Positions 17,075 to 35,580 of a stretch of DNA of 64,000 nt are shown here, in pieces. Positions within the stretch are counted from its first letter, which is position 1, and each line of letters starts with the position of its first letter. The notes beneath the pieces are model-generated. The model ran no database searches, was not told where the DNA came from, and worked only from the letters and a program-made list of their open reading frames with translations. Position numbers and translations under genes: made by a program. Origin of the DNA: Deltaproteobacteria bacterium (GTDB lineage Bacteria > UBA10199 > 2-02-FULL-44-16 > JAAZCA01); contig JABGOS010000118.1 of NCBI GenBank assembly GCA_018645265.1, positions 7,855 to 71,854 on the forward strand. The letters are read 5' to 3'.

Positions 17075-17128
17075 AAAAGTGTCCGACACTTTTTTCCAAT
17101 TATCCCAGAAAAGTGTCCGACACTTTTT
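17075..17128. repeat. two copies of the palindromic element AAAAGTGTCCGACAC-TTTTT immediately after the dNK stop
   Basis: 17075-17095 and 17109-17128. Each is an A-tract, the palindrome GTGTC-C-GACAC, then a T-tract. Confidence 0.8.
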
Positions 17129-17154
17129 GAGGTGTGATGCCCACTGCGTTCCGA

Positions 17155-17229
17155 TTATGGTACGAGCATAACGTACATCAGCAGGACAATCAGTGACAGT
17201 GGAACGAGTCTAACTATGAGATATCGCAT
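17155..17229 (-). CDS. candidate small hydrophobic peptide, 24 aa (MRYLIVRLVPLSLIVLLMYVMLVP)
   Basis: ATG preceded by GGGAGA-aagcc. The peptide is entirely hydrophobic or membrane-like. It lies inside the 420-bp islet bracketed by the palindromic elements. Below the ORF-track size cutoff. Confidence 0.25.
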   Translation of the reverse strand: MRYLIVRLVPLSLIVLLMYVMLVP

Positions 17230-17434
17230 GGCTTTCTCCCAGGTTATTTGAAATTCTATAATGCAAATATTAAGCCATCTACGTCGGAGAATGATGGCCG
17301 TATAACAGCATGAAATTATTAGAAAAGATCAAAATCTAAGGGAGAATCGAAGAATTCTCAGCCTGGGAAAGAGAAGGTGTTTTTATCAGGATGAGAGGAC
17401 CTGCTGATAATTACTGCTAAATTGCTTCTAAACG

Positions 17435-17494
17435 CAAAAAAGGTGTCGGACACTTTTTTGGTGAAAATTCTAATAAGTGTCGGACACCTTTTGG
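17435..17494. repeat. two copies of the palindromic element (AAAAAAGGTGTCGGACAC-TTTTTT and AAGTGTCGGACACC-TTTTGG) just 3' of lemA
   Basis: 17435-17459 and 17475-17494. Same core as the other copies, in the complementary orientation. Confidence 0.8.
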
Positions 17495-17506
17495 TTTGAA
17501 TGCTGA

Positions 17507-18094
17507 CTACTGTGCTGCAGGTTGTGTGCTGAAATCAACTTTTGGGACATCCTTGGCCGAGTCGGAAGCCTTGAAATATGCATCTTCCTTCGAATATCCA
17601 AACAAACCAGCTATCATATTGTTGGGAAATCTACGTACGAACACGTTGTACTGTTTTACCACTTCATTATATCTCTTTCTCTCAACAGCGATCCTGTTTT
17701 CCGTGCCAGCCAGTTCATCCTGAAGCTGAATGAAATTGGTGTTAGCCTTTAAGTCAGGATATCTCTCTACGACGAGAAGAAGGCGTGAAAGGGCGGCAGT
17801 CAACTGATTGTTCGCAGCTATTTTGCCGGGGATAGTAGTTGCTCCGCCGACCTTAGCTCTTGCCTCCGTAACCTGGGTGAATGTGTCCTTTTCGTGTTTA
17901 GCATACCCCTTCACGGTGTTTACAAGGTTTGGAATCAGATCTGCCCTCCGCTGTAGAACATTTTCAACCTGAGCCCATGCGGTTTCCACGCTCTCGTTTA
18001 ACGTTACGATCGAATTATATTTTCTCATACAGCTGGAGCCTAAGATGATTACTGCCAGCACTACGATACCTGTTATGATCCATTTTATTTTCAT
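17507..18094 (-). CDS. lemA: LemA family protein
   Basis: N-terminal TM anchor followed by a LemA-type helical domain (AWAQVENVLQRRADLIPNLVNTVKGYAKHE ... RRFPNNMIAGLFGY). Internal ATG with GGAGAA SD preferred over the ORF-track start at 18106. Confidence 0.85.
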   Translation of the reverse strand: MKIKWIITGIVVLAVIILGSSCMRKYNSIVTLNESVETAWAQVENVLQRRADLIPNLVNTVKGYAKHEKDTFTQVTEARAKVGGATTIPGKIAANNQLTAALSRLLLVVERYPDLKANTNFIQLQDELAGTENRIAVERKRYNEVVKQYNVFVRRFPNNMIAGLFGYSKEDAYFKASDSAKDVPKVDFSTQPAAQ

Positions 18095-18131
18095 ATGATT
18101 CTCCAATTGTAAGTCTAATCTATTAACTCAA

Positions 18132-18839: not shown

Positions 18840-18861
18840 AAAAATCTCCCGTTATTTGCGT

Positions 18862-19602: not shown

Positions 19603-19687
19603 TGAGGGGCGTCTATAGCCGATAATGCCCTGTGTGTAAAATCAAAGTTGAGTCGCTATAAATTCGGTAGAAAGGGGATGGTTCGGC

Positions 19688-20719
19688 TCAACAAATTCTA
19701 GGCAGCTGCTCGCCGGAGAGCATGGTGATTAAACGGCGACTGCCGATAGTTGTTATTAGGTTCACCTTTCCAACGTTATCTTCGGTGACGCAGCCTATAA
19801 TTTCAGATTCTTTTCCCTGTGGATGGGATTGCATAGTTGCCAGCGCTACTTCGGCTGAATCGGCTGGCACTACAGCCACTAGTTTTCCTTCGTTTGCGAC
19901 GTAGAGAGGGTCGATGCCTAAAAGCTCGCATGCCGCTGCTGTTCCCTCTTTTAGGGGGATCTTGCTCTCATCTATTTCAATACCAAAATTGTTCTCACCG
20001 ACCGCTTCACAAAGAACTGTAGCGAGTCCACCGCGAGTTGCATCGCGCATAAATTTTATATTCGGCACTGCTGCAGAGAGATGCTCTGCTAGTGAATTTA
20101 AGGGTGCGCAGTCGCTCTCGATTGAAGTATCCATGGATAATCCCTCGCGCGCACTCATTATGGCCATTCCATGGTCGGCAATTGATCCATTGATGATGAT
20201 TACATCGCCAGTTTCTATACGGGAGGAGGTCATAGCCTGCTTTACAAAAAGCTGTCCAATGCCAGATGTGTTGATAAAGATCCCATCACAGTTTCCCTTT
20301 TCAACGACCTTTGTATCTCCAGCGACTATCATTATTCCGCATGCTCTAGCTACGGTAGCCATCGATGCAACGATACTCTCCAACTGCTTAAACTCAAAAC
20401 CCTCCTCGATGATGAATCCAGCAGTCATATAGATGGCTCTTGCGCCGGACACAGCCAGGTCATTTACAGTGCCGCATACGGCGAGCTTACCGATGTCACC
20501 GCCAGGAAAGAAGATAGGTTTTACCACATATGAATCTGTCGTATATGCGAGATATGTTCTTGGTATTTCAACTATGGCAGCATCACCCATAGCGTTTAGG
20601 ATGGGGTTGCTGAAATGACTTGCGAATATTCCCTGAATCAATTCTTGGCTCTGTATTCCACCACCGCCATGTGCCATTGTGATTCGTGATTCGTTGTTGC
20701 TGAGTTGTGTTTCATTCAT
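19688..20719 (-). CDS. hypE: [NiFe]-hydrogenase maturation protein HypE
   Basis: N-terminal MAHGGGG motif and the PurM/AIR-synthase-like fold. The C-terminal Cys (PRIC) is consistent with HypE. Confidence 0.9.
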   Translation of the reverse strand: MNETQLSNNESRITMAHGGGGIQSQELIQGIFASHFSNPILNAMGDAAIVEIPRTYLAYTTDSYVVKPIFFPGGDIGKLAVCGTVNDLAVSGARAIYMTAGFIIEEGFEFKQLESIVASMATVARACGIMIVAGDTKVVEKGNCDGIFINTSGIGQLFVKQAMTSSRIETGDVIIINGSIADHGMAIMSAREGLSMDTSIESDCAPLNSLAEHLSAAVPNIKFMRDATRGGLATVLCEAVGENNFGIEIDESKIPLKEGTAAACELLGIDPLYVANEGKLVAVVPADSAEVALATMQSHPQGKESEIIGCVTEDNVGKVNLITTIGSRRLITMLSGEQLPRIC

Positions 20720-20733
20720 AAAAACCTCGGGTG

Positions 20734-21816
20734 TTAGCTTCCATATTTAAAATGAGCGGCACACGTCCCTTCGCTAGATACCATGCATGCACCTATGGGA
20801 TGTGAGGGAGTACAATTATTTCCAAATAGTGGGCAGTCTGCCGGCTTAATGTTTCCAGTAAGGATTTCTCCACAACGACATCCGGCTGGTTCCACAGTCT
20901 CTTCAATTGTGACGTTGAATTTTTTAGCTGCATCGTAGGATGAAAACTCATCCCTTATCGACAAGCCGCTTTCAGGTATGTTTCCAATACCTCTCCATTC
21001 CGCATCCGACGCTTCAAATATTCTGTTCAGCAGAGCTTTCGCTTTTATATTTCCGTTGGCGGTAACTACCCTGCGATATGAATTGTGGAGCTTGGGGTCA
21101 CCTGAGGAGATTTGAACAGCCAACTCATAAATTGCTTCGAGCATATCTGAAGGTTCAAAGCCTGCAATGGAACAAGCCACGGGATGTTTTTCAAAAATAG
21201 GGGTATAAGACTCGGATCCTATGATAGTGCTAACGTGTCCTGGAAGGATGAAGCCGTCGATCTCTGTCCGACCTGATAGCAGGGCTAGGAGGGCGGGAGG
21301 GACAACCTTGTTGGCACAAAGCACTGAATAGTTGCTGATACTCTGTCTTGATGCGATGTCGATGGATGCGGCAATAGTTGGAGCTGTTGTCTCAAAACCT
21401 ACGCCGAGGAATATAATTTCTTTATCGATATTATTTCGAGCCAACTCCAAAGCATCCAATGTTGAATATACGATACGGATATCCTGTCCACGGGCACGCT
21501 CACTCTCTAGGCTGGACGTCGACCCTGGAACCTTTATCATATCCCCAAAGGTGCATATGATAGTATTATCCTGACGGGCAAGTGCAATCGCGTGATCGAG
21601 GTAGCGATTCGGTGTTACGCAAACGGGGCAGCCAGGTCCAGATATCAGATTGATATTCTGAGGAAGGATCTGTCGAATTCCAAAACGAGCGAGCGCCATA
21701 GTATGCGTTCCGCAGACCTCCATTATCGTCATAGATTGATCTTTGGCTACCGCAACGATACGGTTTGCTATCGCGTTGGCTTTTTCCCGATCCCTGTATT
21801 CGGTGATATATTTCAT
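20734..21816 (-). CDS. hypD: [NiFe]-hydrogenase maturation protein HypD
   Basis: CGTHT, GPGCPVCVTP and C-terminal CxxC...CxxC motifs (ETVEPAGCRCGEILTG; CPLFGNNCTPSHPIGACMVSSEGTCAA). Confidence 0.9.
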   Translation of the reverse strand: MKYITEYRDREKANAIANRIVAVAKDQSMTIMEVCGTHTMALARFGIRQILPQNINLISGPGCPVCVTPNRYLDHAIALARQDNTIICTFGDMIKVPGSTSSLESERARGQDIRIVYSTLDALELARNNIDKEIIFLGVGFETTAPTIAASIDIASRQSISNYSVLCANKVVPPALLALLSGRTEIDGFILPGHVSTIIGSESYTPIFEKHPVACSIAGFEPSDMLEAIYELAVQISSGDPKLHNSYRRVVTANGNIKAKALLNRIFEASDAEWRGIGNIPESGLSIRDEFSSYDAAKKFNVTIEETVEPAGCRCGEILTGNIKPADCPLFGNNCTPSHPIGACMVSSEGTCAAHFKYGS

Positions 21817-21827
21817 ATTGATTTGAA

Positions 21828-22070
21828 TTATGATTGATCTGAATTGTCGTTTCTTGCGATTTCAGCCATCTTGTTGAGAAGCTTAACCGTCTCCTCCGCT
21901 TCCTTCTCATCTATCTTCTTGATTGCGAATCCTGCGTGTACGAGGATGTAATCTCCAATATCGGCATCGTCGAGGAAGGCGATGTTCACATCCCTCTTCG
22001 TTCCTCCGACGTTGACGGTCGCGGATTCGTTTTCAATTTTTTCAATTTGCATCGGTACAGCCAAACACAT
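21828..22070 (-). CDS. hypC: [NiFe]-hydrogenase maturation chaperone HypC
   Basis: Starts MCLAVP (the HypC Cys2 signature). 80 aa. Confidence 0.85.
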   Translation of the reverse strand: MCLAVPMQIEKIENESATVNVGGTKRDVNIAFLDDADIGDYILVHAGFAIKKIDEKEAEETVKLLNKMAEIARNDNSDQS

Positions 22071-22085
22071 GTGATCTCTCCTGTA

Positions 22086-22553
22086 TTACTGTAAAAAACC
22101 GAACGCCGTTCTATCATCTTCCATTTCGGAGCATTCGATATCCGAATGGGAGTTTACGAGTTTAAGAAAAAGTGGAATATCAGTGATCCCCTTGATGAAG
22201 ATTTCATGAAGCCTCTTCGTATTTTGAGGGACGAGCTTTAGAGCTGTGGTGCGCGGGCCACGCAGTAGGCGCTGAATGCCCTTTATGTCGGAGAATTTAA
22301 TGAATCTCTCAGGTCCCCATAGAAGACGCATGCCCACTCTATCGCTATAGAGTTTGAATCTGCATAGTATCGATTGCTTCGTGAGCGTTGTAGCTCCCTT
22401 TAATGTCGTCCAGGATGAATAGATAACGGGGTCAGTAGAACCCTCAGCGATGATGGCTTCTCCAAATCTCTTCATGCGCCATGTGATGACATACGGGGAG
22501 ACGAGTATTAGTCCGACTATAATCAGAACAATTGTCAGCAATTGAGTATCCAT
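22086..22553 (-). CDS. hypothetical single-pass membrane protein located between hypC and hypF
   Basis: TM helix LLTIVLIIVGLILVSPYVITW. No recognisable motifs. Start set at the internal ATG (MDTQLL) to avoid overlapping the hypF stop. Confidence 0.45.
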   Translation of the reverse strand: MDTQLLTIVLIIVGLILVSPYVITWRMKRFGEAIIAEGSTDPVIYSSWTTLKGATTLTKQSILCRFKLYSDRVGMRLLWGPERFIKFSDIKGIQRLLRGPRTTALKLVPQNTKRLHEIFIKGITDIPLFLKLVNSHSDIECSEMEDDRTAFGFLQ

Positions 22554-22563
22554 CCTCTTCCTT

Positions 22564-24867
22564 TCATTTTGTTTTATGAAGGTGTGCTGCGATGGCCGCC
22601 TGTCCAAGTGCTACGCCTCCATCGCCTGGGGGCACGAGAGAGTGCGTATAGACCGTAAACCCTTTATCTACAAGTAATTTCTTGAGTTTCGTCATCAGTA
22701 TCGCATTTTGGAAACATCCCCCCGACAGACAGACACGCCGTCTGTCGTGTATTGCATTCCCTTTATCAATTTTTGTACATATATCGAACAATGCGCCTAC
22801 AATTGTATTGTGAAAACGCATACTTATAACGCCAAGCTCTGTGCCAGCTTGAACCCCCTCGCTGATGGCTGCAATCATCGGCGAGAAATTAATTCTCAGT
22901 GCTCCGTTGCAGGTTTCGTCGATTGTAAATGGATATACACCGTGCTCAGATTCGTCCGCAATCTGCTCAAGCTCCATCGCTGCCTGTCCCTCGAAAGAGT
23001 TTTTCATTCGAAGACCTGTCAAAGCTGCCACAGCGTCGAAAAGTCTTCCGCAGCTGGAGGTCATCGGGCAGTTGATATCCTTTTCAATCATCTGCTGAAC
23101 AAATTTAATTTTCTCATCACCGATTTTTTTGAAATGTTGAATCGTTCGCACTCTGCTGTCTGCAGTCTGAAGATATGCGAGTGCCATCCTCCAACATTCC
23201 TTCGCTGCGACATTCCCCCCGGGCATTGGTATCTGTCCGAAGTGTGCAGCACGCTCGAATGTTTCATAATCGGCCATGAGAACTTCTCCACCCCAAATTG
23301 TTCCGTCCGTTCCGAACCCCGTTCCATCGAGTGCGATGCCGATTACCTTTTCATTAGGTAAATCGTTTTCAGCCATGCAGCTGGCTATGTGAGCATGATG
23401 GTGTTGCACTTCAGTGATCGGTGATCTGTGGTTGGTCGCTATTTTATTTGCAAAACGTGTGCTGAAATAATCTGGATGCATATCGCATGTGACGATCTCG
23501 GGTTTAATGTTCAGAATGTGCATCAGGTGGTCAGCTACCATCTCCAGAGAATCATGGGAATCCAAATTCTCCATGTCACCCAAATGCTGCGATAAAAAAG
23601 CATTGTGACCCTTCGTGAAACAGATGGTGTTTTTTAGATCCGCTCCAACAGCGAAGAGTTGTGGCATTTCAAAGCTCAGTCTTATCGGTGTTGGTGTATA
23701 GCCGCGTGCCCTGCGGAGCATCAACGGCTTGCCATCCATAAGGCGGGTTATGGAATCATCGACTCGAATATGAATATTGCGATCGTGGATGAGGAATGCA
23801 TCAGCTATATCCTTCAGTTTGCGAAACGCCTGGTCATCAATGAATGCGATAGGCTCGTTGGAAATATTGCCACTGGTCATAACCAAAACGCGCCCTGCAC
23901 CAGATTTAAAGAGCAAATGATGTAATGGCGTGGAAGGTAGCATCACACCTAAGTGACTATTGCCCGGGGCAATCATCTCTGAGATTTTCGAGCCCTCTTT
24001 TCTATGCAATAGCACGATAGGGCGCTGTGGTGATATCAACAGCCTTTCTTCCTCATCAGAAATATCACAGAGGGTATTTACTGTCTGTATATTACCAACC
24101 ATGATTGCGAACGGCTTTTCATCACGATCTTTGCGTGCGCGAAGCCTTGTCACCGATTCATCATTCGTGGCATCGCAAGCGAGGTGATAGCCGCCTAACC
24201 CTTTGACCGCGATGATCTTGCCATCATCCATAGATCTCAATGCCTGTTTAACAGGGTCATCAGGGGATTGGGAGGTCGAATTGTCAGACCGGATGAACTT
24301 CACTTGTGGCCCGCACCTTTCGCACGCATTTGGCTGTGCATGAAATCTTCTATTCGATGGGTCGGTGTATTCGTGCTTGCAATCCTCACAGAGTTCAAAC
24401 TCCTTCATCGTCGTCATTGGACGGTCGTATGGTAAATGCTGAATTATGCTATAGCGCGGGCCGCAATTCGTACAGTTGATGAAAGGATATGCGTATCTCC
24501 TGTCGCCTGTATCCATCAGCTCTCTCGTGCAATCATCGCAAGGTGCGATGTCTGGAGATATTAACGTGGTTGAGCTTCCAGTATTTTCGCTTTCGATGAT
24601 TTTGAAATCCGTTTCATCGGTGGTGTTTATAACGGTTGAATCGATTCTTTGAATATGGGCGAGGGGAGGGAGCTCATTTTGAACTCTATCTAGGAAGGAG
24701 TTCAAACGCTCCTCCGGGCCTTCTGCTTCGATTGTCACTCCTTCGGAATGATTGAAGACGTGACCGCCCAGTCCAATTTCCGTAGCTAGCTTGTAGATAA
24801 ACGGACGAAAGCCCACACCCTGAACGGTGCCATCGATATCTATACGCCAGCGGCTGGAAAATCCCAT
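22564..24867 (-). CDS. hypF: carbamoyltransferase HypF
   Basis: Acylphosphatase domain (VQGVGFRPFIYKLA), twin Zn-finger repeats (CDDCTRE...CTNCGPRYSII; CEDCKHEY...CERCGPQ), YrdC-like and Kae1-like domains (HHHAH..., GGCFQN). Confidence 0.9.
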   Translation of the reverse strand: MGFSSRWRIDIDGTVQGVGFRPFIYKLATEIGLGGHVFNHSEGVTIEAEGPEERLNSFLDRVQNELPPLAHIQRIDSTVINTTDETDFKIIESENTGSSTTLISPDIAPCDDCTRELMDTGDRRYAYPFINCTNCGPRYSIIQHLPYDRPMTTMKEFELCEDCKHEYTDPSNRRFHAQPNACERCGPQVKFIRSDNSTSQSPDDPVKQALRSMDDGKIIAVKGLGGYHLACDATNDESVTRLRARKDRDEKPFAIMVGNIQTVNTLCDISDEEERLLISPQRPIVLLHRKEGSKISEMIAPGNSHLGVMLPSTPLHHLLFKSGAGRVLVMTSGNISNEPIAFIDDQAFRKLKDIADAFLIHDRNIHIRVDDSITRLMDGKPLMLRRARGYTPTPIRLSFEMPQLFAVGADLKNTICFTKGHNAFLSQHLGDMENLDSHDSLEMVADHLMHILNIKPEIVTCDMHPDYFSTRFANKIATNHRSPITEVQHHHAHIASCMAENDLPNEKVIGIALDGTGFGTDGTIWGGEVLMADYETFERAAHFGQIPMPGGNVAAKECWRMALAYLQTADSRVRTIQHFKKIGDEKIKFVQQMIEKDINCPMTSSCGRLFDAVAALTGLRMKNSFEGQAAMELEQIADESEHGVYPFTIDETCNGALRINFSPMIAAISEGVQAGTELGVISMRFHNTIVGALFDICTKIDKGNAIHDRRRVCLSGGCFQNAILMTKLKKLLVDKGFTVYTHSLVPPGDGGVALGQAAIAAHLHKTK

Positions 24868-24942
24868 AGGGCGGGACTCTAAGGGTGATGCCCCCTCACT
24901 GTCAAGGTCAATAAAAGGGGTTGAAATGATCGTTTGTAGGCA

Positions 24943-24973
24943 ATAAAAAGGCCCCCTAGCGATTGGGGGCCCT
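24943..24973 (-). terminator. rho-independent terminator after paralog-A gene
   Basis: On the minus strand: gggcccccaatcgctagggggcc followed by ttttta. Confidence 0.55.
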
Positions 24974-24995
24974 TTGAATCGCTTGGATTGGTAGC

Positions 24996-25736
24996 TTATT
25001 CGGCAGCCGGTATTTTCTTCAGTATAGCCATTACAGCTTTTTTGCTAAATGGTTCAAATGTCTTTGTTGTTGGTTTGACGGAGCGGGATCCCCAGGAGAG
25101 ACTCCTTCCATATCCATCTGATCTGCTGTAACAGCGTTCAAATCCTCTTCCATTCTCAGCATTGATTTTTACGTAACATGATTGAGAGTCTATATCCCAG
25201 CTGATATGTAATGCATCGGCTATATCAACTCCAGCTTCAGCAAATGTCCCCTTCGACACCTGCGCGCCATAGGCTACATCGATTCCGAGTCTGTCCTCTG
25301 CAAACTCAGCGAGTTCCTGTCCTGCTGGGAATTTCTCAGCGGCCAGTGTTTTTCTCAGAGTGCGAAAGCCTTTTTCACTGAATCCCCTAGGGGTTTCAAA
25401 TTGTGCGACAGTTGGTTTTGGATCGGGTTTACGGCTAAATCCGCGATTTGGATATGATGTGGTATGGATTGAAGTAGCTCCAGTGCCTTCTTCGCGGATC
25501 ACAAATTGTGTCGATGTAGCTGTCCCGAATTGTCCGAAAGCTGTTTTTTCTGGCATGACACGTTTTGTTGCTATGATGTCGCCCTTACGATTTACACTAA
25601 ATGTCCAACCATCTTCCCTGAAGTTTAAACCGTTCTCTTCGCCTATTTTGTAAAACCAACTTGGAAGCTTTACAGTTTCAGCTGCAGGTTCTGTGCCTTT
25701 CGGTACTCCTGCTACACTTCCTACTGGTAACGTCAT
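24996..25736 (-). CDS. hypothetical protein, paralog A of a two-gene family embedded in the hyp cluster
   Basis: 246 aa. It shares EDGWTFSVNRKGDIIATKRVMPEK, YPNRGFSRK and C..K.......C blocks with the adjacent 192-aa ORF. Confidence 0.5.
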   Translation of the reverse strand: MTLPVGSVAGVPKGTEPAAETVKLPSWFYKIGEENGLNFREDGWTFSVNRKGDIIATKRVMPEKTAFGQFGTATSTQFVIREEGTGATSIHTTSYPNRGFSRKPDPKPTVAQFETPRGFSEKGFRTLRKTLAAEKFPAGQELAEFAEDRLGIDVAYGAQVSKGTFAEAGVDIADALHISWDIDSQSCYVKINAENGRGFERCYSRSDGYGRSLSWGSRSVKPTTKTFEPFSKKAVMAILKKIPAAE

Positions 25737-25906
25737 AAATGCCTCCTTTTGAGTTCAATTTGAATTCCAGAGCTTATAGTAAAAACTTGTGTTCATATCA
25801 ATCTCCCAACAAGTTTTCCGTATACTGGAGTATACAGGGAAGTCCTATACGCAGTGCTTCTATGCAATGCGTTATATATAACAAACGATATGATATTTAA
25901 TGATTA

Positions 25907-26485: not shown

Positions 26486-26621
26486 AAATGCTCCTAGATA
26501 TAATTCTGAAATATTTACTCACTTATCGCGGTTTTGGTGAAAATGTTTCGCCTTTTTTGGGTAATTATGGATGGTGTCGAACAGAGCCTATTTAAACAAT
26601 AATAGCTGTATAAACGGTATG

Positions 26622-27011
26622 TTAGGCCTCAATAGATACGAGTTTCATTTCATTGCCGCTTATGAGTTTGATGCTTTCACACTTGCATGTGGGGCATGCT
26701 GGGGGAAGGTAGAGGGCTGGGGCATGGGCTACCTTATGAGCGAAATCGTGATCAGCGAAGCGGTCATCGGTAAAGTTGTGATTGCACTTGGTACACTCAA
26801 GTTTCACCGGAACCTCTTCAATTACAAACTGCATTTCTGCCATCAGTGGGTTTTTTGCATAGTCCTTGAGACATAGATCCAGGTTTTCTCTCTGAAAGGC
26901 ATTCATCACGCCTATCTTGAGTTTTGCGGTCCGAACCTTCTCCATATTTCGGTTCTTCGCTTCCTTCTCTATTATCTTACAGATCGTTTCCGATATAGCC
27001 AGTTCATGCAT
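26622..27011 (-). CDS. hypA: hydrogenase nickel-incorporation protein HypA
   Basis: Internal start MHELAISETI (HypA begins MHE[LM]S[IL]) with AGGAGGGATGAT SD. C-terminal Zn site CTKCNHNF...CPTCKC. The ORF-track N-terminal extension is rejected. Confidence 0.8.
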   Translation of the reverse strand: MHELAISETICKIIEKEAKNRNMEKVRTAKLKIGVMNAFQRENLDLCLKDYAKNPLMAEMQFVIEEVPVKLECTKCNHNFTDDRFADHDFAHKVAHAPALYLPPACPTCKCESIKLISGNEMKLVSIEA

Positions 27012-27107
27012 ATCATCCCTCCTGATCGAGGTGCTATACATCCCTAGCATTGGTTGTGCAATAGTGTATCGAAAATGATTGAAAAGAAAGGCACCCTGTG
27101 GTGTCCT

Positions 27108-27132
27108 CAAAAAGGTGTCGGACACTTTTTGG
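27108..27132. repeat. single copy of the palindromic element (CAAAAAGGTGTCGGACACTTTTTGG) in the hypA/apbE divergent intergenic region
   Basis: Lies 10 nt upstream of the apbE SD GGGGGGAGA. Confidence 0.8.
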
Positions 27133-27142
27133 GGGGAGATGT

Positions 27143-28177
27143 ATGAAACACAAAAAAATCATTGTAATTGGGGTGTTGGCGGTTCTGTGCATAGCGCTGA
27201 TTTGGGCCTTCTTTCCCCGGAGATATGATGGCAGCTTCTATCCGATGGGTGGTATTCCATTTAAAGTCGTCGCCTACGGAAAAAATTTCATTCAGTTCGA
27301 TAGAATTATGGAAGCGGTTGAAAATGATGTGGCCAAGCTTGAGAAGATCTTCAGCAGATATGATAGAACGAGCGAGCTTTCAAAGCTGAACGAAATTGCT
27401 GAAAGGAAGCCAGTTCAGGTAAGCAAAGGGATGCATCGAATGATTGCTCTTTCCAAGAAGTGGTATCGAATGAGTGGTGGCGCGTTTGATCCGAGCGTAG
27501 CTCCACTTGTGAACCTATGGAAGCGGGCTGGTAAATCGAATATCCTACCTAGCGATGATGAGATTGCTGCTCTTCTCAAGAGCGTCGGTATGGATAAAGT
27601 GGATATGCTTGATGGTGACGAGGTCTTTTTCGCCGCGAAGGGAATGAAACTTGATTTTGGTGCAATTGCTAAGGGGTTTATCGTCGACAGATCTGTATCC
27701 TCCGCTTCGGAAGCTGGAAATGAATCTGGTTTGATTGAAGCTGGCGGTGATGCATATATCTTTGTCGAAGATAGTACTAAAATAGGCGTTCAGGACCCGA
27801 CCGACAGTGCGAAGCTGATGGCCACCGTCAGCGTTTCAGCCGGGGCTGTTGTTACTTCCGGGGATTATGAGAGGTATGTAGAAATTGATGGCAAAAAATA
27901 TTCCCATATTGTAGATCCGCGCACCGGTTATCCATCTGATAACGGGGTGATCAGTGTAACTGTTGTCGGTGGTGCTGCTGTCGATGCCGATGCCTTGGCA
28001 ACATCAGTGATGGTCTTGGGTGTCGATGGTGGAATTGGGTTGGTAAGGAAGCTGGCGGATATGCATCTGATAATTGTGGAAAAGAATGCGGATGATTATC
28101 TCGTGCATGTTTCGAAACAACTTTTACCTATCATTGAATGGCACTCGAATTGGTCTGATAAGGTTTCTGAGTTTTAA
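27143..28177 (+). CDS. apbE: FAD:protein FMN transferase (ApbE family)
   Basis: MSGGAFDPSVAPLVNLW, LDFGAIAKGFIVD, TSGDYERYVEIDGKKYSHIVDPRTGYP, and the Mg-site DADALATSVMVLG. N-terminal signal anchor. Confidence 0.85.
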   Translation: MKHKKIIVIGVLAVLCIALIWAFFPRRYDGSFYPMGGIPFKVVAYGKNFIQFDRIMEAVENDVAKLEKIFSRYDRTSELSKLNEIAERKPVQVSKGMHRMIALSKKWYRMSGGAFDPSVAPLVNLWKRAGKSNILPSDDEIAALLKSVGMDKVDMLDGDEVFFAAKGMKLDFGAIAKGFIVDRSVSSASEAGNESGLIEAGGDAYIFVEDSTKIGVQDPTDSAKLMATVSVSAGAVVTSGDYERYVEIDGKKYSHIVDPRTGYPSDNGVISVTVVGGAAVDADALATSVMVLGVDGGIGLVRKLADMHLIIVEKNADDYLVHVSKQLLPIIEWHSNWSDKVSEF

Positions 28178-28187
28178 TTGAAAGAAT

Positions 28188-29438
28188 ATGAAAGAGAATA
28201 GGCGCGTAAAATATATTAGGATTGCATCGTTTAGTTTTCTAGCGTTTTCGGTGATGTTTTCCTATGCGATAGCAAGGCCATCGGCGGAATCGTTATTTCT
28301 GGCGACACATTCCAGCAAAAGTCTTCCGCTGGTATGGCTTATAGTGGCAGCTGCGATGTTGTGTGTGGTTGCCATCTACAATTGGTTTGTCACAAAACAC
28401 GATCTCATTCGCCTTTTTGGATACGCCGCATTCGCCAGCAGCATAACCTTGGTGGGGTTGCTTCTTCTAAAGAGGATGGAAGTATATGGAGTGAATTACG
28501 CCATATATGTCTGGAAGGATATATATGTAGTGGTTCTGGTGGATCTCTTCTATATGTATGCCAATTCCGTATTTCCCATAAAGACAGCTCGGTGGATATA
28601 TGGTTTTTTCGGGGCGTTTGCAGCGGCGGGAAGTATCGTTGGTAATCTGTTGGTAGGTAAGCTCGCAATGGCATATGGAACCGTCGGTTCCTTTTGGTTT
28701 GCCGTTCCTGTATTGGCACTTATTGGATTTTTCTGCCTGCCACTTTCAAAAATCGTTGGAATCGGGAAACCTTTGGAAAAGAAATATAATCATGCCCACA
28801 TCCGTGAAGCGTGGAAGGTTGTGAGGAATAGCTCTTATCTTACACTTATACTCCTTTTGATCTTCGTAGTGCAGATTGCCGTTGTCCTGATAGATTTTGA
28901 GTTCAATGGGGTGGTCGAGAGTGCATTTCCAGATATGGATGTTCGCACCGGAATGATAGGTAAAATTTATGCGATTATTAACAGTGCTACGTTTGTACTG
29001 CACCTCATTACCGGACCGCTATTGAGGTTGGTAACCGTCCCAGGAGCGCTAATCTCCATTCCATTTATTCTGGCACTCAGTGTTGTTACATTTATAGCAT
29101 TTCCTGCATTCATGGTAGTAGCTGTGATGAAAGCGGCGAGTAAAGTTTTTGATTATACGATATTCAAGTCTGCGAAGGAGATTCTGTATATTCCCCTTAC
29201 CTATGAAGAGAAAACTATGGGCAAGTCGATAGTCGACATGCTTTCTTATCGTATTGCGAAGGGCGGGGCATCGCTTTTGCTAATGGGCATTCTTGGATTG
29301 GGGCTGATGAAGATCGTTCCGTGGGTGACACTTGCTCTTATACTGCTTTGGATTGTTATCACGTGGGCGATAGTTAAGAGGTTCAGAAGTAAGGTGGATA
29401 GGTCTCAGGAGATGACATCTGACTTTGTAAATAGGTGA
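28188..29438 (+). CDS. polytopic membrane transporter (MFS-like; N-terminus resembles TLC/ADP-ATP-translocase-type carriers)
   Basis: About 11-12 predicted TM helices. The N-terminal FLAFSVMFSYAIARPSAESLFL resembles the TLC-family start. The subfamily call is weak. Confidence 0.45.
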   Translation: MKENRRVKYIRIASFSFLAFSVMFSYAIARPSAESLFLATHSSKSLPLVWLIVAAAMLCVVAIYNWFVTKHDLIRLFGYAAFASSITLVGLLLLKRMEVYGVNYAIYVWKDIYVVVLVDLFYMYANSVFPIKTARWIYGFFGAFAAAGSIVGNLLVGKLAMAYGTVGSFWFAVPVLALIGFFCLPLSKIVGIGKPLEKKYNHAHIREAWKVVRNSSYLTLILLLIFVVQIAVVLIDFEFNGVVESAFPDMDVRTGMIGKIYAIINSATFVLHLITGPLLRLVTVPGALISIPFILALSVVTFIAFPAFMVVAVMKAASKVFDYTIFKSAKEILYIPLTYEEKTMGKSIVDMLSYRIAKGGASLLLMGILGLGLMKIVPWVTLALILLWIVITWAIVKRFRSKVDRSQEMTSDFVNR

Positions 29439-29551
29439 TCTTTATGTATTAGTTGTGTCTGAAGGGGAGATAATCCGAGCGATATAACTATTGGCAAGGC
29501 CCCAGTATCCTTATAGTATGCGCGAAACAAGCTCCGGGAGTGTTTCTAAGT

Positions 29552-32500
29552 ATGGGTAATGAAAAGGAAATTATTGAGTCGAAGAATGGTAATTATGAGG
29601 TCATCCGCAAGTTGGGTGAAGGTTTTACCGGTGAAGTCTATGTTGTGAACGATCTTACCCGGGGTGAACCGTGCGCGCTGAAGCTTTTAAACCCTGAGGC
29701 TTTTAAGGAGGGACAGCTCACTGCTTTTAAACGTGAGTTCATGTTGCTCTCCGATCTTCACAATCCCCATGTATGTGCTGTCTATGATTTCGGATTTTCC
29801 AGTAACAAGGATCGCTACTTTTTTACGATGGAGGTCGTACAGGGTAAAGATCTCTATAAGTATGTCGAAGGCCTAGCTATCGACGAGATTGAAGAACTCT
29901 TCGTTCAAATCGTGGATGGTCTGGGTGTGATTCATCAGGCAGGTCTCATCCATTACGATATCAAGGGATCCAACATCCTGGTAACCAATACGCCGACAGG
30001 TGGTGTCCTTGCAAAGATCGTCGATTTTGGACTCGCCGCACCCTCGGCAGAGGTTCATGAAAATATAGCCGGAACTGTACGCTACATGAGTCCGGAGATG
30101 ATTCTGCACGATCAGACGATAGATTACAGGAGTGATCTTTATTCGTTGGGTATCGTTTTTTATCGGATGTTGGCCGGTGATTACCCTAGTCAGGGAACAA
30201 ATATGAAAGAGGTTCTTTCCTGGCATGTCAGTCACACGGATCTTGATTCAGCACCCCTCAAGGCGAAGGGTGTGCCTGATTATCTAATCGAGGTGGTTGA
30301 GAATCTTACAAAACCTATTCCCACAGAGAGATTTTCCTCGGCAGCAGTGATAGTTAGGTTTCTGGAGCTTCATTCAGGGAAAAAATATGCAGAAGTGCAG
30401 AGGCAGCTTGTTTCAACGCTGATGGAGGAAGGCCCGCTCGTTGCGAGGGATGGCATTATGCAGACGATACGTCCGATGCTTCATCGTTTGGGAGAGAAAA
30501 AGAAATTTGAAGAGGATGATCACCAGACCTTGGTTGTAAGCGGTCCATCAGGTTCCGGGAAATCGAGAATTCTTAAGGAAGCGAAGTATATAACGCAGCT
30601 GATGGAAGTAAATAGGGTGATAGTGAGTGGCGACACAGAGGGACAGGATCTCGATGCATTTAAAAAATTCATCGGATGTGAGGGGCTGTCAGACGATGAC
30701 GCTACAAAGCATCTACTGGAAAGACAGCCTCTATGTCTAATGGTGGATGATCTTGATAAGTGCAACGGGCAGGTTAGGAACTTTGTGACTGCATTTGTTA
30801 ACACGCTTTATTCGTCCCGCTTTCTTGGAAAAGAAAGCATGGTTTACGTTCTTCTTTCGATGTCGGTCGATGGTCCTAAGGCACCTCTTCCTGTTTCATT
30901 GCATCTTGATGTTGAAAATAGATTTCTCGAACCCTTCAGCGCTGAGGATGTGATCAACTATCTGAGGCTGGCAATCGGTGAATCCAATCCTTCAAATAAA
31001 CAGGTTAAGGATATTTTAAATTTCTCTGGAGGAATTCCGGAGCTCGTTAGAATAGCTATTGCAACATTAGATTCGCCAGGTGGTAAGATTGAAGGTGGTG
31101 CCGATAAGATATTTGCTGAGAAGATAGACAAGCTCGATGATGCCGCGCGGAGGGTCCTTGGAATTTTAGTGTTAGCGGGTAGGCCTATTTCACAACACCA
31201 TCTTATCGTTCTTTCTGGCGTGATTATCGAGAATGCTCTCAGCGAGCTGCTGAAGGATGGGTTTATCACCTTCAACAGGGAAAAAGAAAGCTATGAGGCA
31301 GCATCGGGAGCAGTTGCTTCAGCTGTTCAGGCGGCGCTTGGCGAGGAGGAGGAGAAGGATATGGGCAAATCCCTTCTCGAACATTTCGAAGAGTACTCCC
31401 CTGATGATATCGATGCCATAACGAGGTTTGCGAAGTTGGGAGCAGATCCGGATAAGGTGCCGGGTTATATAATTGCGGCTGCTGAGAAAAAGGATTCCAT
31501 ATCAGACCTTGAGGGTACTTATAAATATTACAAGGATGCTATTGATGTTCTTCAAACTGGCGATGAGAGGCTTCCAAGTATTCATAGAAAACTGGCTAGA
31601 CAGCAGATTTTTATAGGAGAATTGGACGAAGCTATAAAACATATTGAGGAGGCCACCAAGGAGTCGGGTGAAAATAAGGATGATCTTCTGATGAGGAGCT
31701 GGATTGGGCGTATCCGCCATAAACCGGACGAGGCGCTTGAGTATATTCAAAAAGCGATGAAGGTCATGGCTGATGGGGCCGAACAAGTTGAGGTGCTGAA
31801 ACTGATGAATGAAGAGGCACAGTGCTACATCCAGATGGGTCAGCCTGATAAGGCCATTGAAATTTTTACAAAGACTCAGACTGAGGCCGATAATATGGCG
31901 GAGGATCAGAGGAAGCAGGTTGCGAATAATAATTTGGGCTTGGCATTGGCTCTGAAGGATGACTTCGACAATGCTATTGAATTTTATAATAAGAAATTTG
32001 ATTTTTTCTCTGATGATAAGAGGCTTGCGGCATCCATTCTTAGTCAGCTGGGCTACGTCTATCAGAGGGGAAATAAACTTACCGACGCTCTTGAGACTTG
32101 TAAGAAGAGCTGGGAACTTTATTCCGAAGTTGGCGACACCCATAGTTCGATGTCAATCTTGAGCAATCTCGTCTGTATCTGTCAGAGCCTAGCTCGTTTT
32201 ACAGATGCACTTCCATATGTGACGGCAAGTATTGAGCTTGCTTCGAAGGCAGGTTCGGAGAGGGATCTAGCTAACAACTTTTTGAATCTTGGGATGCTAT
32301 ATCTAAACCTGGGTTTGGAGGATGTTGCTGGAAGATACCTTAACGAAGCGGCGCGCATCTTTCAGAAGCTCAAGGATCCTCATATGGAGGGATGGGTTCA
32401 GCTCTCTATGGCTTACAGATACAAACATATTCATCGTTATGACGAGGCACTTGCCTATCTGAATGTTGTTATAAAGAGGGGAGCCGATAAGGGATATGCG

Positions 32501-33187
32501 GATCTCTCCCTGTGGGGCAATTATGAGGCGGCCGATATGCTCGTTGACCTGGGTCAAATAGAGAAGGCTGAAAAGTATCTATCCACCTTGGATGAGGTGT
32601 GGGACGGGGAGGAGAACGTCACCGAGACTACCATCAAGGTGGAGCTGTTGAGATGCAAAATCAGAGTCGGATCCAGAAAAGATGTTGGTGAACCCCTTGA
32701 AAAAAGGCTTCTGGAGTTGGCGGATCTATCGGATAATATGGAACTCAGGGAACTTGTCGGCGAAGTCTATCACACTTTGAGCGAGTACTATGGGATCTCA
32801 GGTGATCAGAAAAAGTCTGCCGAATTTGTTGCCAAGGCGAAAGATATAATCGATGAGATCGCATCCTCTCTTTCAGAGGAGTATCGCGGTTCATTTATGA
32901 AACAGAAATTTAGACAGAAGGTCGCCGAGGACAGCGTGAAGCTTAAGGATGTGATCGGGGAGATTAGGCGGGAGCTCGGTATTCCAGAGAAAATAAAACC
33001 TTCAATCAATGAGCCTTCGATTCGTGATGATACCGCTTTGAATGCGGAGCCAAGCGGAAAAACCGCTGATCTTTCCTCCGCTAATCTCGAGTTGGGGGAG
33101 ACGAGTGCTCTACCGGAATCTGAATCACAAGCATTGAGCAGGGAGATATCTAGAGATTTGAAGAAAAAAAAGGAAGAGGATAAGTAG
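29552..33187 (+). CDS. multidomain Ser/Thr protein kinase - STAND/AAA NTPase - TPR regulator (PknK/MalT-like architecture)
   Basis: Kinase Gly-loop LGEGFTGEVY, VAIK-like ALKLL, catalytic HYDIKGSNILV, DFGLA, SPE. Walker A VVSGPSGSGKSRIL and Walker B LCLMVDDLD. C-terminal TPR-like repeats, roughly 500 aa. Start set at the ATG at 29552, inside the GTG ORF. Confidence 0.85.
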   Translation: MGNEKEIIESKNGNYEVIRKLGEGFTGEVYVVNDLTRGEPCALKLLNPEAFKEGQLTAFKREFMLLSDLHNPHVCAVYDFGFSSNKDRYFFTMEVVQGKDLYKYVEGLAIDEIEELFVQIVDGLGVIHQAGLIHYDIKGSNILVTNTPTGGVLAKIVDFGLAAPSAEVHENIAGTVRYMSPEMILHDQTIDYRSDLYSLGIVFYRMLAGDYPSQGTNMKEVLSWHVSHTDLDSAPLKAKGVPDYLIEVVENLTKPIPTERFSSAAVIVRFLELHSGKKYAEVQRQLVSTLMEEGPLVARDGIMQTIRPMLHRLGEKKKFEEDDHQTLVVSGPSGSGKSRILKEAKYITQLMEVNRVIVSGDTEGQDLDAFKKFIGCEGLSDDDATKHLLERQPLCLMVDDLDKCNGQVRNFVTAFVNTLYSSRFLGKESMVYVLLSMSVDGPKAPLPVSLHLDVENRFLEPFSAEDVINYLRLAIGESNPSNKQVKDILNFSGGIPELVRIAIATLDSPGGKIEGGADKIFAEKIDKLDDAARRVLGILVLAGRPISQHHLIVLSGVIIENALSELLKDGFITFNREKESYEAASGAVASAVQAALGEEEEKDMGKSLLEHFEEYSPDDIDAITRFAKLGADPDKVPGYIIAAAEKKDSISDLEGTYKYYKDAIDVLQTGDERLPSIHRKLARQQIFIGELDEAIKHIEEATKESGENKDDLLMRSWIGRIRHKPDEALEYIQKAMKVMADGAEQVEVLKLMNEEAQCYIQMGQPDKAIEIFTKTQTEADNMAEDQRKQVANNNLGLALALKDDFDNAIEFYNKKFDFFSDDKRLAASILSQLGYVYQRGNKLTDALETCKKSWELYSEVGDTHSSMSILSNLVCICQSLARFTDALPYVTASIELASKAGSERDLANNFLNLGMLYLNLGLEDVAGRYLNEAARIFQKLKDPHMEGWVQLSMAYRYKHIHRYDEALAYLNVVIKRGADKGYADLSLWGNYEAADMLVDLGQIEKAEKYLSTLDEVWDGEENVTETTIKVELLRCKIRVGSRKDVGEPLEKRLLELADLSDNMELRELVGEVYHTLSEYYGISGDQKKSAEFVAKAKDIIDEIASSLSEEYRGSFMKQKFRQKVAEDSVKLKDVIGEIRRELGIPEKIKPSINEPSIRDDTALNAEPSGKTADLSSANLELGETSALPESESQALSREISRDLKKKKEEDK

Positions 33188-33204
33188 GCTCATCCTTTCT
33201 TCCA

Positions 33205-33720
33205 TCAACTTTCATTATCTAGAGGGTTCACCATCGATATATTGAGTAAGTCCTTCAATCCGGCCTCAAGTCTTTGTGTCTCATTCATTATATATGGACA
33301 TGCGCCGATGAGACATCCTGAATTTGAGGCGTCGTAGATTAGATGTAATCTTCCGAGGAAAGAAAATGCTGTAACGTTATTCTGGTCAGGAATTTTTAGT
33401 ATTCCGCTCTTGGTAGTGTGGCTGACAAGGGTTGTCGAACCATTTGTCTCTCGGCGCCATAACAAGACACCCTTCTTAAAGTATAGCGCATCGGTATCAT
33501 ACACGCACAGATCATCTATAGTTGATTTCCATCTAGGTATTTCAAATTGTGTCCAATTCTGGTTATGAAAATCGCTTGTAATGCCGGTGATCGATTCCTC
33601 ACTTAAATTGACGACAGTTCCTTTCATGAATGGGTGCGCTCTATCGGTGAAGGAACTGCAGTTTGGTTTTAAGTTGAATATGCTGTCCGGCAGTTTTTTT
33701 TGTGTCACACTCTTTGGCAT
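33205..33720 (-). CDS. hypothetical protein
   Basis: 171-aa ORF divergent from the 526-aa gene. No motifs recognised. Confidence 0.4.
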   Translation of the reverse strand: MPKSVTQKKLPDSIFNLKPNCSSFTDRAHPFMKGTVVNLSEESITGITSDFHNQNWTQFEIPRWKSTIDDLCVYDTDALYFKKGVLLWRRETNGSTTLVSHTTKSGILKIPDQNNVTAFSFLGRLHLIYDASNSGCLIGACPYIMNETQRLEAGLKDLLNISMVNPLDNES

Positions 33721-33932
33721 AGTTGTTGTGTCCTCGATGCGTTTATTTGCAGAAAAACGTTATAGTTGCTGTGAATCCCTAAGGCTATTGTAGTGTAATA
33801 TCAAATTGTTACGCTGAGTTCTCTATGGGACTTGGCTGCAGATCAGTCGCAGCTGAGCTTTCCTATTACTATTGAAAAATAATGCAATAAAAACATAAAA
33901 GTATGAACAGGCCTCTTGCAATGAAATAGGCA

Positions 33933-35513
33933 TTGTTATACGACTTATTGACAGGGAGGCATATGGTTAGAGCACTTCAATACAGTTCAGTTCCGAGTAG
34001 CTTTCATATAGCTGATCAGATTCATCCGTATAGATTCTGTCATCCGAATCTTGGTGGCAACCCGTTCTATGTTGCTCTGAGCCAATCGATTCCTACCAAG
34101 AATGATCAGACGGTATTGAATCATCTGCTGGGAGGGCAGGTGGGTCAGGCAGTGGCGGTACCGCTGCAGGATCTTCCACAGGAACTTCCCAGCGGTTTTC
34201 GATATTATGATATCACATCTGCAATACCTCCATACGTTCAGGAGAAACTGGGAACCTCTGAGTATATACCAGGCCCAAATTGTTATCACGCGGTGATGAC
34301 AACCCAATATGGGGATAGGTTTAGGGAGCGGTATGTTCATGATGAGGAGATCGGCTACTATCTGACTCGTGATTTTCAAGTATCAGCTAGAAGGGATCTT
34401 CTTGGTTCTGCTTTGATTTATACGCGGAGTGTTTACGGGTCATCCGGTATGAGTTTTGCTGAAGGGGTTAGCGTAGCGGGTGGCCCAGAGTACGATATCA
34501 AGGATTTTGGACTTACTACATTTGGCATATTCACTATGCAGATGCCAGGGGCATTCAAACCATCAAGAATACCTCGCGCAATAGGTGAATCCGAGGGACA
34601 CGGTGTTGTGAAGAAATCACTTCCTGATCTGAACGATGATGATTTTGTAGGTGATGAACAGCTATTTTCTCTAGCACCGGATGCGACAAGATCAGAGGGG
34701 TGGAAGGTTATTCCGACAGCTGATCCGGGAGTGCATGGGGCGATTATGTTGCTCGGAGGTATGGTATTTCAAAAGGGATGCTTCGGTGATCACTGTGGCT
34801 ATCGCATTGTTCCTGCTGACAAGGGGATGTCGTCGATTGAGATCAAACAGGAACGCTTTGCACCTAGGCGGGAGCCTGAGAATGATGCACACTACAGATA
34901 CACGAGCTACGTTCGTTCCAATAGAGATCCAGTAGAGAGGTTTGGCTTTAACTTGGAACTATCGAACAAGTTAGCGTCCTATGTCACTTTGATGGAGCAC
35001 TATCTTGGAAGGTTTAGAGGGATTAAGGACAAATCTTGGAAGCATTTCAATGAAGCCAGGATTGATCTGCTCAGCGTTGAGAATATGTGGGGCGTTCTGC
35101 GCGATATGGAAAAATTAATGTATGATGGTGAGCCAAGTAAAATGAATGCGTTGCTCAGAATTGATCCAACCATTGCTGAGATGTTTTTGGAACTCAAGAG
35201 TCTTAGATGGCAGTACCAAGTTATGACCGACAAGTACGCTCCCTTTCCGGATAGATGGTCACGTGATAGGGTTAAGCGTGAACTCGCAGAGTTGTATCGT
35301 GATCATTATGTCAATCCGGATAGTGAGATATTCAGGGATGAGGTTGTGGCGCATCTCAAAATCAGGGGGGTAGCTGAGGCATCGTGGAGTGGGGTCATCG
35401 CGGCGGTTGTTGAGAGGGTTAAGACATACGATCCTGTGGAATTTTCATCATCAAACGGTGCCAAAGGAATACCGTTCTCCGATCTTCTGGATGAAATAAT
35501 CGGATCTGGTTAA
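33933..35513 (+). CDS. hypothetical protein with OTU-like Cys motif (YIPGPNCYHAVMT) - possible cysteine peptidase
   Basis: 526 aa. The GxNC(Y/L)xHA motif resembles the OTU/A20 catalytic-Cys context (DGNCLMHA). A downstream His candidate is HGAIMLLGG. Unverified. Confidence 0.45.
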   Translation: MLYDLLTGRHMVRALQYSSVPSSFHIADQIHPYRFCHPNLGGNPFYVALSQSIPTKNDQTVLNHLLGGQVGQAVAVPLQDLPQELPSGFRYYDITSAIPPYVQEKLGTSEYIPGPNCYHAVMTTQYGDRFRERYVHDEEIGYYLTRDFQVSARRDLLGSALIYTRSVYGSSGMSFAEGVSVAGGPEYDIKDFGLTTFGIFTMQMPGAFKPSRIPRAIGESEGHGVVKKSLPDLNDDDFVGDEQLFSLAPDATRSEGWKVIPTADPGVHGAIMLLGGMVFQKGCFGDHCGYRIVPADKGMSSIEIKQERFAPRREPENDAHYRYTSYVRSNRDPVERFGFNLELSNKLASYVTLMEHYLGRFRGIKDKSWKHFNEARIDLLSVENMWGVLRDMEKLMYDGEPSKMNALLRIDPTIAEMFLELKSLRWQYQVMTDKYAPFPDRWSRDRVKRELAELYRDHYVNPDSEIFRDEVVAHLKIRGVAEASWSGVIAAVVERVKTYDPVEFSSSNGAKGIPFSDLLDEIIGSG

Positions 35514-35539
35514 ATAGTATTCAAATATCGATTTTTTCC

Positions 35540-35580
35540 AAAAAGGTGTCCGACACTAAAAAGGTGTCCGACACCTTTTG
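35540..35580. repeat. two abutting copies of the palindromic element (AAAAAGGTGTCCGACAC TAAAAAGGTGTCCGACACCTTTTG)
   Basis: 35540-35557 and 35558-35580. They sit between the 526-aa gene stop and the ECF sigma gene. Confidence 0.8.

Follow-up and report, generated by a model that had tools for sequence, protein, structure and literature searches.

Short extragenic palindromes in a deltaproteobacterial contig: repeats with a probable origin in the terminal inverted repeats flanking a RAYT-like transposase gene

Introduction

Classical REPs, or repetitive extragenic palindromes, are present in many copies per genome, flank a single-copy Y1 transposase gene, that of the REP-associated tyrosine transposase (RAYT), and have side effects on transcription termination and mRNA stability. 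The present analysis concerns a palindrome with the core GTGTC[CG]GACAC that recurs in a 64-kb stretch of DNA from a Deltaproteobacteria bacterium (contig JABGOS010000118.1); this whole stretch is hereafter called the window, and coordinates are window positions unless another contig is named.

Besides the genes associated with classical REPs, RAYT-like genes flanked by terminal inverted repeats (TIRs) have been described as “TIRtrons” and their transposases as “TIRYT” (Di Nocera, De Gregorio and Rocco 2013, PMC3733652). Many TIRYT repeats carry the motif GGGGWSAS, and among the TIR families there are some dispersed in moderate numbers, some self-complementary and some found as dimers or clusters (PMC3733652). 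TIRYT was subsequently equated with TnpA-Y1 subclass 2.1 (Bertels group 1), beside whose genes no REP-like sequences were reported (Quentin 2018, PMC6006769), and RAYT group 1 was found to have the widest taxonomic spread and flanking 16-mers that are modestly repeated (Bertels 2017, PMC5581495). The repeats of the TIRtrons, RAYT group 1 and TnpA-Y1 subclass 2.1 probably correspond to one another.

The palindrome of the window resembles the REP, bacterial interspersed mosaic element (BIME) and REPIN–RAYT systems of Escherichia coli and Pseudomonas in that its copies are short and extragenic, often lie just after genes and, when present as doublets, form a larger hairpin. As with classical REPs, the copies differ between related genomes and the repeat flanks, in other genomes analyzed here, a Y1 transposase gene in what corresponds to a REPtron arrangement. 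On the other hand, it is a palindrome perfect through its centre, unlike the imperfect stem-loops of classical REPs. With the TIRYT families it shares dispersal, self-complementarity and occurrence in dimers. The seven copies are probably REP/TIR-type repeats whose origin lies in the TIRs of a RAYT-like (TIRYT-type) HUH/Y1 transposase gene. This reading is based on the copies themselves, their positions and predicted folds, their absence from relatives and their identity to RAYT-flanking repeats of other genomes; we infer from it that such a transposase is or was present in this genome, that the enzyme moved the copies and that the copies terminate transcription. Elements of this kind have been described before, and REP/RAYT biology is left unchanged in its general outline; what is added is a REP-like family of unusually conserved sequence outside the well-studied Proteobacteria.

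The palindrome and its copies

A pattern search for the exact core yielded seven matches in the window, starting at 17079, 17113, 17443, 17477, 27115, 35546 and 35564 and distributed over four loci, of which three are doublets and one (copy 5) is a single. The number of exact cores expected from base composition is 0.02 per 64 kb, and when one mismatch is tolerated the eight matches found compare with 1.0 on average, and never more than 4, among 100 dinucleotide-preserving shuffles, so that the recurrence of the palindrome, first noticed by eye of a model in the original prediction, is firmly established. Every core is preceded by an A run and followed by a T run, and the resulting units of 18–24 nt are perfect 5-1-5 palindromes, in keeping with the short (about 20–40 bp), stem-loop-capable units typical of REP/TIR repeats. 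The longer motif initially proposed, GGTGTC(C/G)GACACC, was partly too strict: the core GTGTC[CG]GACAC is common to all seven copies, whereas the full 13-mer, GGTGTCSGACACC, matches the window once, in copy 7, because only there is the inner G/C pair present on both sides. Other half-sites of the window (1299, 1341, 51792, 51815 and 53307) are situated within coding or unrelated sequence and were set aside as chance occurrences.

The premise that all copies are confined to non-coding DNA also held, seven out of seven being extragenic in a window whose coding fraction is ~92.7%; the chance of four independent loci all being non-coding is P ~3e-5. The centres of the paired copies are separated by 34 nt in two doublets (copies 1–2 and 3–4) and by 18 nt in the third (copies 6–7), and the dimer or cluster arrangement encountered in REP/TIR repeats is thus seen at three of the four loci. 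Rfam returned tRNA only, and nothing on the palindrome, with the whole window at the gathering threshold, and only a chance miRNA-like match on the doublet with the region 16900–17700 at E ≤ 1.

Identity to repeats flanking RAYT-like genes

Copy 7 is identical in sequence to the repeat located upstream of a RAYT gene of Stieleria. Stieleria sedimenti (L054) has a 225-aa gene enclosed by two palindromes in inverted orientation, of which one precedes the start codon by 59 nt and the other follows the stop codon by 4 nt. The encoded protein is a Y1/HUH transposase (Pfam Y1_Tnp, E = 3.9e-16) with the motifs PNHWH and YVERNP, in which Pfam detected neither a Bac_DnaA_C nor a helix-turn-helix domain. 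Its best NCBIfam model is REP_Tyr_transpos, with 58.7 bits, a score far above that of IS200 though below the cut-off; indeed, unlike the classical RAYTs, the transposase obtains 58.7–67.5 bits with this model versus the 80 bits that the cut-off demands. A PDB sequence search with the transposase gave no match. In Novipirellula rosea (L053) a homologue with 66% identity is followed by a palindrome 23 nt after its stop codon, and that of Planctomycetes bacterium CA13 (L183) has two palindromes upstream and a degenerate one downstream. Along with these three cultured planctomycetes, flanked RAYT-like genes were found in three metagenome contigs: in two of them (L092 and L093) the exact palindrome flanks the transposase gene, and in the third (L164, GC 43%) the variant AAAAAGGTGTC[A/T]GACACCTTTT is present on both of its sides.

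A metagenome scan with an alignment of the 225-aa transposase gave 80 loci with 45–66% identity and a GC content of 33–71%, and inverted repeats flank the gene in 52 of the 67 homologues for which both flanks were available. Most of the 52 fit AAAAGG[T/G]GTCAGGAACCTTTT, a consensus that equals the palindrome at 18 of 21 positions and usually ends ~35–40 nt before the start codon, the imperfect repeat being AAAAGGTGTCAGGAACCTTTT. Most of these flank repeats contain GGGGTCAG or its one-mismatch variant GGTGTCAG, both of which fit the GGGGWSAS motif of the TIRYT repeats; the window palindrome carries GGTGTC[CG]G. Since homologues with ~60% identity include proteins of NPL-UPA2 and Parcubacteria, the clade must be regarded as very widespread. 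The likeness to TIRYT is one of repeats; a difference is that, beside subclass 2.1 genes, Quentin reports no REP-like sequences.

Two other Y1 genes came to light. A Bacteriovoracaceae metagenome-assembled genome (MAG; L041), which has one GTGTCCGACAC copy, contains a second, different RAYT-like gene (6669–7511) flanked by palindromes of its own, AAAAATGTCG...CGACATTTTT, at 6557–6634 and 7481–7558; the A-run/hairpin/T-run layout is thus found again in a further REPtron. In Rubripirellula tenax a second Y1_Tnp gene, with a Bac_DnaA_C domain (L184, 12603–13592), is located 2 kb from a 227-aa RAYT-like gene, so that two different types of Y1 transposase stand side by side.

Occurrence of the same sequence in other genomes

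When one genome per species (596 Gb) was scanned with the pattern AAARGTGTCSGACACYTTT, for which ~17 chance matches are expected by estimate, at least 91 stretches matched, many genomes having several copies. Among the matches listed, the majority are from Pirellulaceae (Stieleria, Novipirellula, Rhodopirellula), with many copies per genome and an identical 19–23-nt sequence, and the others include Phycisphaerae, Sedimentisphaerales, Saprospiraceae, Bacteriovoracaceae, Geminicoccaceae and one Myxococcales MAG. A classification of the context of the 91 loci by longest open reading frame (ORF), which placed 42 of them inside ORFs that were mostly over-extended or spurious, was dropped, and the context was judged instead by how far the sites lie from the stops of long open frames. 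By this measure, 49% of 105 sites among the matches listed follow, at a distance of no more than 60 nt, the stop codon of an open frame of 150 aa or longer, compared with 9.5% of random positions. Carriage by phages is not supported, a single match having been found among 2.9 million viral contigs.

Adjacent copies in the other genomes are spaced 17–70 nt, and an extra truncated half-site is found near 18 of 119 copies versus 5.6% expected, both figures again concerning the matches listed. Half-site duplications are common to these copies, to copy 5 of the window, which is preceded by a truncated GGTGTCC (27100–27106) 2 nt upstream, and to the flanks of the RAYT genes, the consensus repeats at the flanks of the metagenomic homologues often displaying the same staggered duplications; such a staggered partial duplication is a signature of the palindrome family. 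In some loci (L010 3240–3300, L066 2130–2190 and, upstream of the RAYT gene, L100) nested and progressively longer truncated left arms, such as AAAAAAAGGTGGCT AAAAAAAGGTGTCGGGCT AAAAAAAGGTGTCGGACACC, were observed, which look like the trace of abortive copying events. Another peculiarity is displayed by the Pirellulaceae copies (L001–L091; e.g., L054 89–108 and L053 7400–7420), which possess a one-sided conserved extension of ~20 nt, GG-N5-T(A/G)GG(C/T)A(G/A)TTT, placed ~9 nt from the stem; it may hold a cleavage or guide site of the transposase. The possibility that this flank (TGGCA...GGCA) is a sigma-54 promoter was rejected, the GG–GC spacing being 10 instead of 12.

The palindrome is thus found in Planctomycetota, Bacteroidota, Bdellovibrionota-like MAGs and the Myxococcales/Deltaproteobacteria-like lineage of the window. 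We advance only tentatively, and with more doubt than conviction, the broader idea that AAAAAGGTGTC-S-GACACCTTTTT represents a single REP-like family, nearly unchanged across distant phyla and serviced by the very widespread 225-aa RAYT-like clade, of which ~60%-identical homologues exist even among candidate-phyla-radiation bacteria and whose class of transposase has been described with terminal repeats but without REP populations. Were this so, transposase and target would either travel together by horizontal transfer or be tied by an unusually tight constraint imposed by the enzyme on its target, and the truncated half-site duplications would record how copies arise. The literal palindrome was not found in the searchable literature or in the supplements of two REP/RAYT surveys. 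What makes it noteworthy is the conservation of a repeat across phyla together with its tie to a very common and poorly characterized RAYT-like clade; it offers, moreover, a usable marker for the spread of such transposases and their targets and probably accounts for breaks in metagenome assemblies.

Genomic context and comparison with relatives

The names originally given to the genes around the copies (dNK, LemA, HypA, ApbE and ECF sigma) were all borne out by Pfam. Copy 1 (17075–17095, AAAAGTGTCCGACACTTTTTT) begins 1 nt after the stop codon (TAA, 17071–17073) of dNK (16462–17073, plus strand), and the centre of copy 2 (17109–17128) is 34 nt from its own. These two are separated from the second doublet by an orphan spacer of 305 nt (17129–17434), part of the 433-nt gap between dNK and the convergent lemA gene (17507–18094, minus strand). 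Copy 3 (17436–17459, AAAAAAGGTGTCGGACACTTTTTT) is followed at a centre distance of 34 nt by copy 4 (17475–17492, AAGTGTCGGACACCTTTT), which ends 14 nt before the lemA stop codon (17507–17509, minus strand). Copy 6 (35540–35557, AAAAAGGTGTCCGACACT) begins 26 nt after the stop codon (TAA, 35511–35513) of a 526-aa ORF (33933–35513), and copy 7 (35558–35579, AAAAAGGTGTCCGACACCTTTT), which directly adjoins it, lies 78 nt upstream of the ORF of the ECF sigma factor (35658–36230, plus strand). Three of the four loci are therefore located 1–26 nt after stop codons (dNK, lemA and the 526-aa gene), and copy 5 alone is not at a 3′ end; most of the other gene ends of the window lack the palindrome.

Copy 5 (27109–27130, AAAAAGGTGTCGGACACTTTTT) occupies the divergent region between hypA and apbE (27143–28177, plus strand). 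It had been placed 10 nt upstream of the apbE Shine–Dalgarno (SD) sequence; in fact it ends directly at the SD G-run (GGGGGGAGA, 27131–27139), 12 nt before the ATG at 27143. The HypA start is most likely at 27011 (canonical MHEL) instead of 27050 as in the JGI gene call, and copy 5 is outside hypA with either start.

The closest dNK homologues are, where named, from Myxococcales, Deltaproteobacteria or Pseudomonadota MAGs. The comparison suggested earlier, intended to reveal whether the copies are presence/absence insertions, was carried out with relatives whose dNK is 93% (L172–L174), 87% (L175–L177) or 78% (L178) identical, amounting together to ~100 kb, those of the second and third group being collinear with the window. 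Not a single copy of the palindrome was found in these ~100 kb. At the orthologous junctions the dNK–lemA gap is 48 or 19 nt instead of 433 nt, the relative with the 93%-identical dNK has a different hairpin after this gene, and what comes after the orthologue of the 526-aa gene is unrelated sequence without palindrome. Presence/absence at orthologous sites, as seen with REP/TIR repeats, is thus documented, and the lack of copies combined with the short gaps of the relatives indicates that the copies of the window are lineage-specific insertions and not conserved operators or other regulatory sites. A RAYT gene was found in the loci of the relatives neither by tblastn nor by hmmsearch.

With respect to the collinear relative L175, the window contains four extra blocks: a 625-aa repeat protein (12988–14865), the hyp cluster for hydrogenase maturation (19688–27011), a block with a Ser/Thr kinase (29540–33720) and another with the ECF sigma factor (35514–40800). 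The hyp block, lacking in L175, has copy 5 at its right edge, and the ECF block has the doublet 6–7 at its left edge; two of the four synteny breakpoints therefore fall at the repeats.

Contigs of the same species, with identical dNK and ApbE proteins, are available from ENA sample ERZ27250158 and stop at copies 1 and 5, one of them (L179) ending exactly at copy 1 (L179 1553–1576) and the other (L182) starting exactly at the 3′ edge of copy 5 (L182 1–14). Assemblers commonly break contigs at repeats, and this finding suggests that copies 1 and 5 break short-read assemblies.

Folding, termination and alternative explanations

The single copies fold at −4 to −14 kcal/mol, with values of −7.5 (copy 1), −10.0, −10.7 (copy 3) and −14.0 kcal/mol (extended copy 5), and copy 4 has no self-fold in the minimum-energy structure. 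In the case of copy 5, the extended hairpin (CCUC...GGGG) involves pairing of CCUC with part of the apbE SD G-run. Far more stable structures are predicted for the doublets, namely −23.6 (plus strand) and −24.3 kcal/mol (minus strand; z about −5.3) for copies 1 and 2 (17070–17134), which pair into one long hairpin, −28.1 (plus) and −21.8 kcal/mol (minus) for copies 3 and 4 (17432–17500) and −22.9 kcal/mol (z = −5.3) for copies 6 and 7, the z-scores of the doublets being comprised between −5.3 and −6.4. Because each unit is self-complementary, a doublet's two units can anneal into a predicted stem of ~20 bp with one central mismatch, bounded by A and T runs. With energies of −22 to −28 kcal/mol the doublets would probably act also as bidirectional terminators; the single copies, with −4 to −14 kcal/mol, appear by the same predictions to be weak candidates, and the symmetric bidirectional terminator envisaged in the original prediction is accordingly plausible for the former and weak for the latter. 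A simple intrinsic-terminator scan of the window listed copy 7 as the sole copy.

It could be argued from these properties that the copies are nothing else than ordinary bidirectional intrinsic terminators arisen in place, whose common sequence reflects good terminator design and not the history of a mobile element. Like Rho-independent bidirectional terminators, they show the A-run/hairpin/T-run order on both strands and are found where convergent or tandem genes end; stop codons precede three of the four loci, of which two are between convergent genes, and the doublets are strong hairpins followed by T runs in either direction. The claim that a pure terminator role fails to explain the doublet preceding the ECF sigma gene was mistaken, since the 526-aa ORF is a real conserved gene, whose orthologue in L175 is 42% identical (E = 2e-140), and a position 26 nt after its stop codon does explain copies 6 and 7. 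Nevertheless, terminators preserve shape and not sequence, whereas here 11–23 nt are identical across seven copies and across phyla; a single unpaired central base makes a poor RNA hairpin, the singles folding at −4 to −10.7 kcal/mol; one copy is placed in a divergent promoter region and most gene ends of the window do without the palindrome; the corresponding junction of the relatives holds another hairpin or hardly any spacer; and in other genomes the palindrome flanks transposase genes. An origin in place as mere terminators is therefore unlikely, whereas termination as a secondary role is compatible with the derivation from TIRs.

Even less probable is a role of the palindrome as operator for a dimeric DNA-binding regulator or as the site of a nucleoid protein, with the flanking genes as its regulon. 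A perfect palindrome with a fixed C/G central base is typical of sites bound by symmetric dimers, and the copy of the hypA/apbE divergent region and the doublet 78 nt upstream of the ECF sigma gene are suitably placed. However, six of the seven copies (1–4 and 6–7) immediately follow stop codons, downstream of genes, and among the matches listed from other genomes about half lie within 60 nt after one; the relatives have no copy upstream of the orthologous genes, at variance with the conservation that an operator would display; the spacing within doublets is variable; and the neighbouring genes have no common functional theme. Of the two alternatives left at the outset, the REP/BIME-like dispersed element is thus supported, by virtue of extragenic copies arranged in doublets, missing from the junctions of relatives and identical to RAYT-flanking repeats elsewhere, and the operator is not, with three of the four loci after stop codons, no conservation and a spacing of 18 or 34 nt.

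As to a DNA uptake signal, the least credible explanation, such signals are often inverted pairs inside terminators, as in Neisseria and Pasteurellaceae, and an identical short sequence at terminator-like positions, sometimes paired, is reminiscent of them, but uptake sequences are dense (about one per kb), common inside genes and lineage-specific, whereas here none of seven copies is coding in a 93%-coding window and the palindrome occurs in unrelated phyla and flanks transposase genes.

Several observations weigh against the derivation of the copies from the TIRs of a RAYT-like gene. Unlike the situation in a TIRtron, no RAYT/Y1_Tnp gene was found by tblastn and hmmsearch in the 64-kb window, nor any Y1_Tnp among the gene calls of the 10 kb upstream of it, so that the link is by repeat homology only, and the copies (seven at four loci) were counted within this 64-kb portion of a 221.5-kb contig from JGI metagenome 3300072015. 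The conserved GTAG at the foot of the hairpin of classical REPs is not seen, and no tetranucleotide, be it GTAG or CGTC, is common to the sequences adjoining the seven stems; judged by the central base, the doublets are direct repeats and not inverted ones as in classical REPINs; the singles are weak hairpins with 4 to 6 G–C pairs; and the one-sided flank conserved in Pirellulaceae is missing from the window copies. Furthermore, ORF-based calls of the context are noisy in high-GC loci, having assigned 11 loci of other genomes to divergent and 9 to convergent arrangements.

If the copies do derive from such TIRs, the following course of events may be envisaged. The transposase gene would be single-copy and located elsewhere in the genome, or would since have been lost. 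The enzyme would recognize the hairpin formed by the palindrome in single-stranded DNA, and cutting and rejoining at this hairpin would seed new copies and tandem doublets in intergenic DNA, where they would persist as long as they are harmless, that is, mostly just after stop codons. There, the doublet stem of ~20 bp with its A and T runs could stop or stabilize transcripts coming from either direction, for instance at the dNK/lemA junction and after the 526-aa gene, and the single copy at the ribosome-binding site of apbE could dampen expression of this gene. For annotation, the repeat marks likely transcript ends at the two former sites and flags a possible brake on apbE.

Neighbouring sequences

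The 305-nt spacer between the two doublets of the dNK–lemA gap has no homologue in any of the fetched loci and no Rfam match, and blastn, tblastx and a search with a RAYT profile (hmmsearch) detected no RAYT remnant in it. It contains an ORF of 24 aa, very hydrophobic (MRYLIVRLVPLSLIVLLMYVMLVP, 17155–17229, minus strand) and preceded by GGGAGA, that could encode a small membrane peptide or be due to chance.

Pfam identified also an AdoHcyase in the window. The 625-aa ORF that constitutes the first of the extra blocks (12988–14865) encodes a repeat-domain protein without Pfam match in the JGI gene calls and comprises three tandem units of 381 nt (13543–14755), 64–81% identical to the reference copy, as well as a nested repeat of 55 nt. 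Finally, apbE is followed by a gene for a TLC-family ATP/ADP translocase (28188–29438) that is kept in the relatives and is unusual for a free-living Deltaproteobacteria-like lineage.

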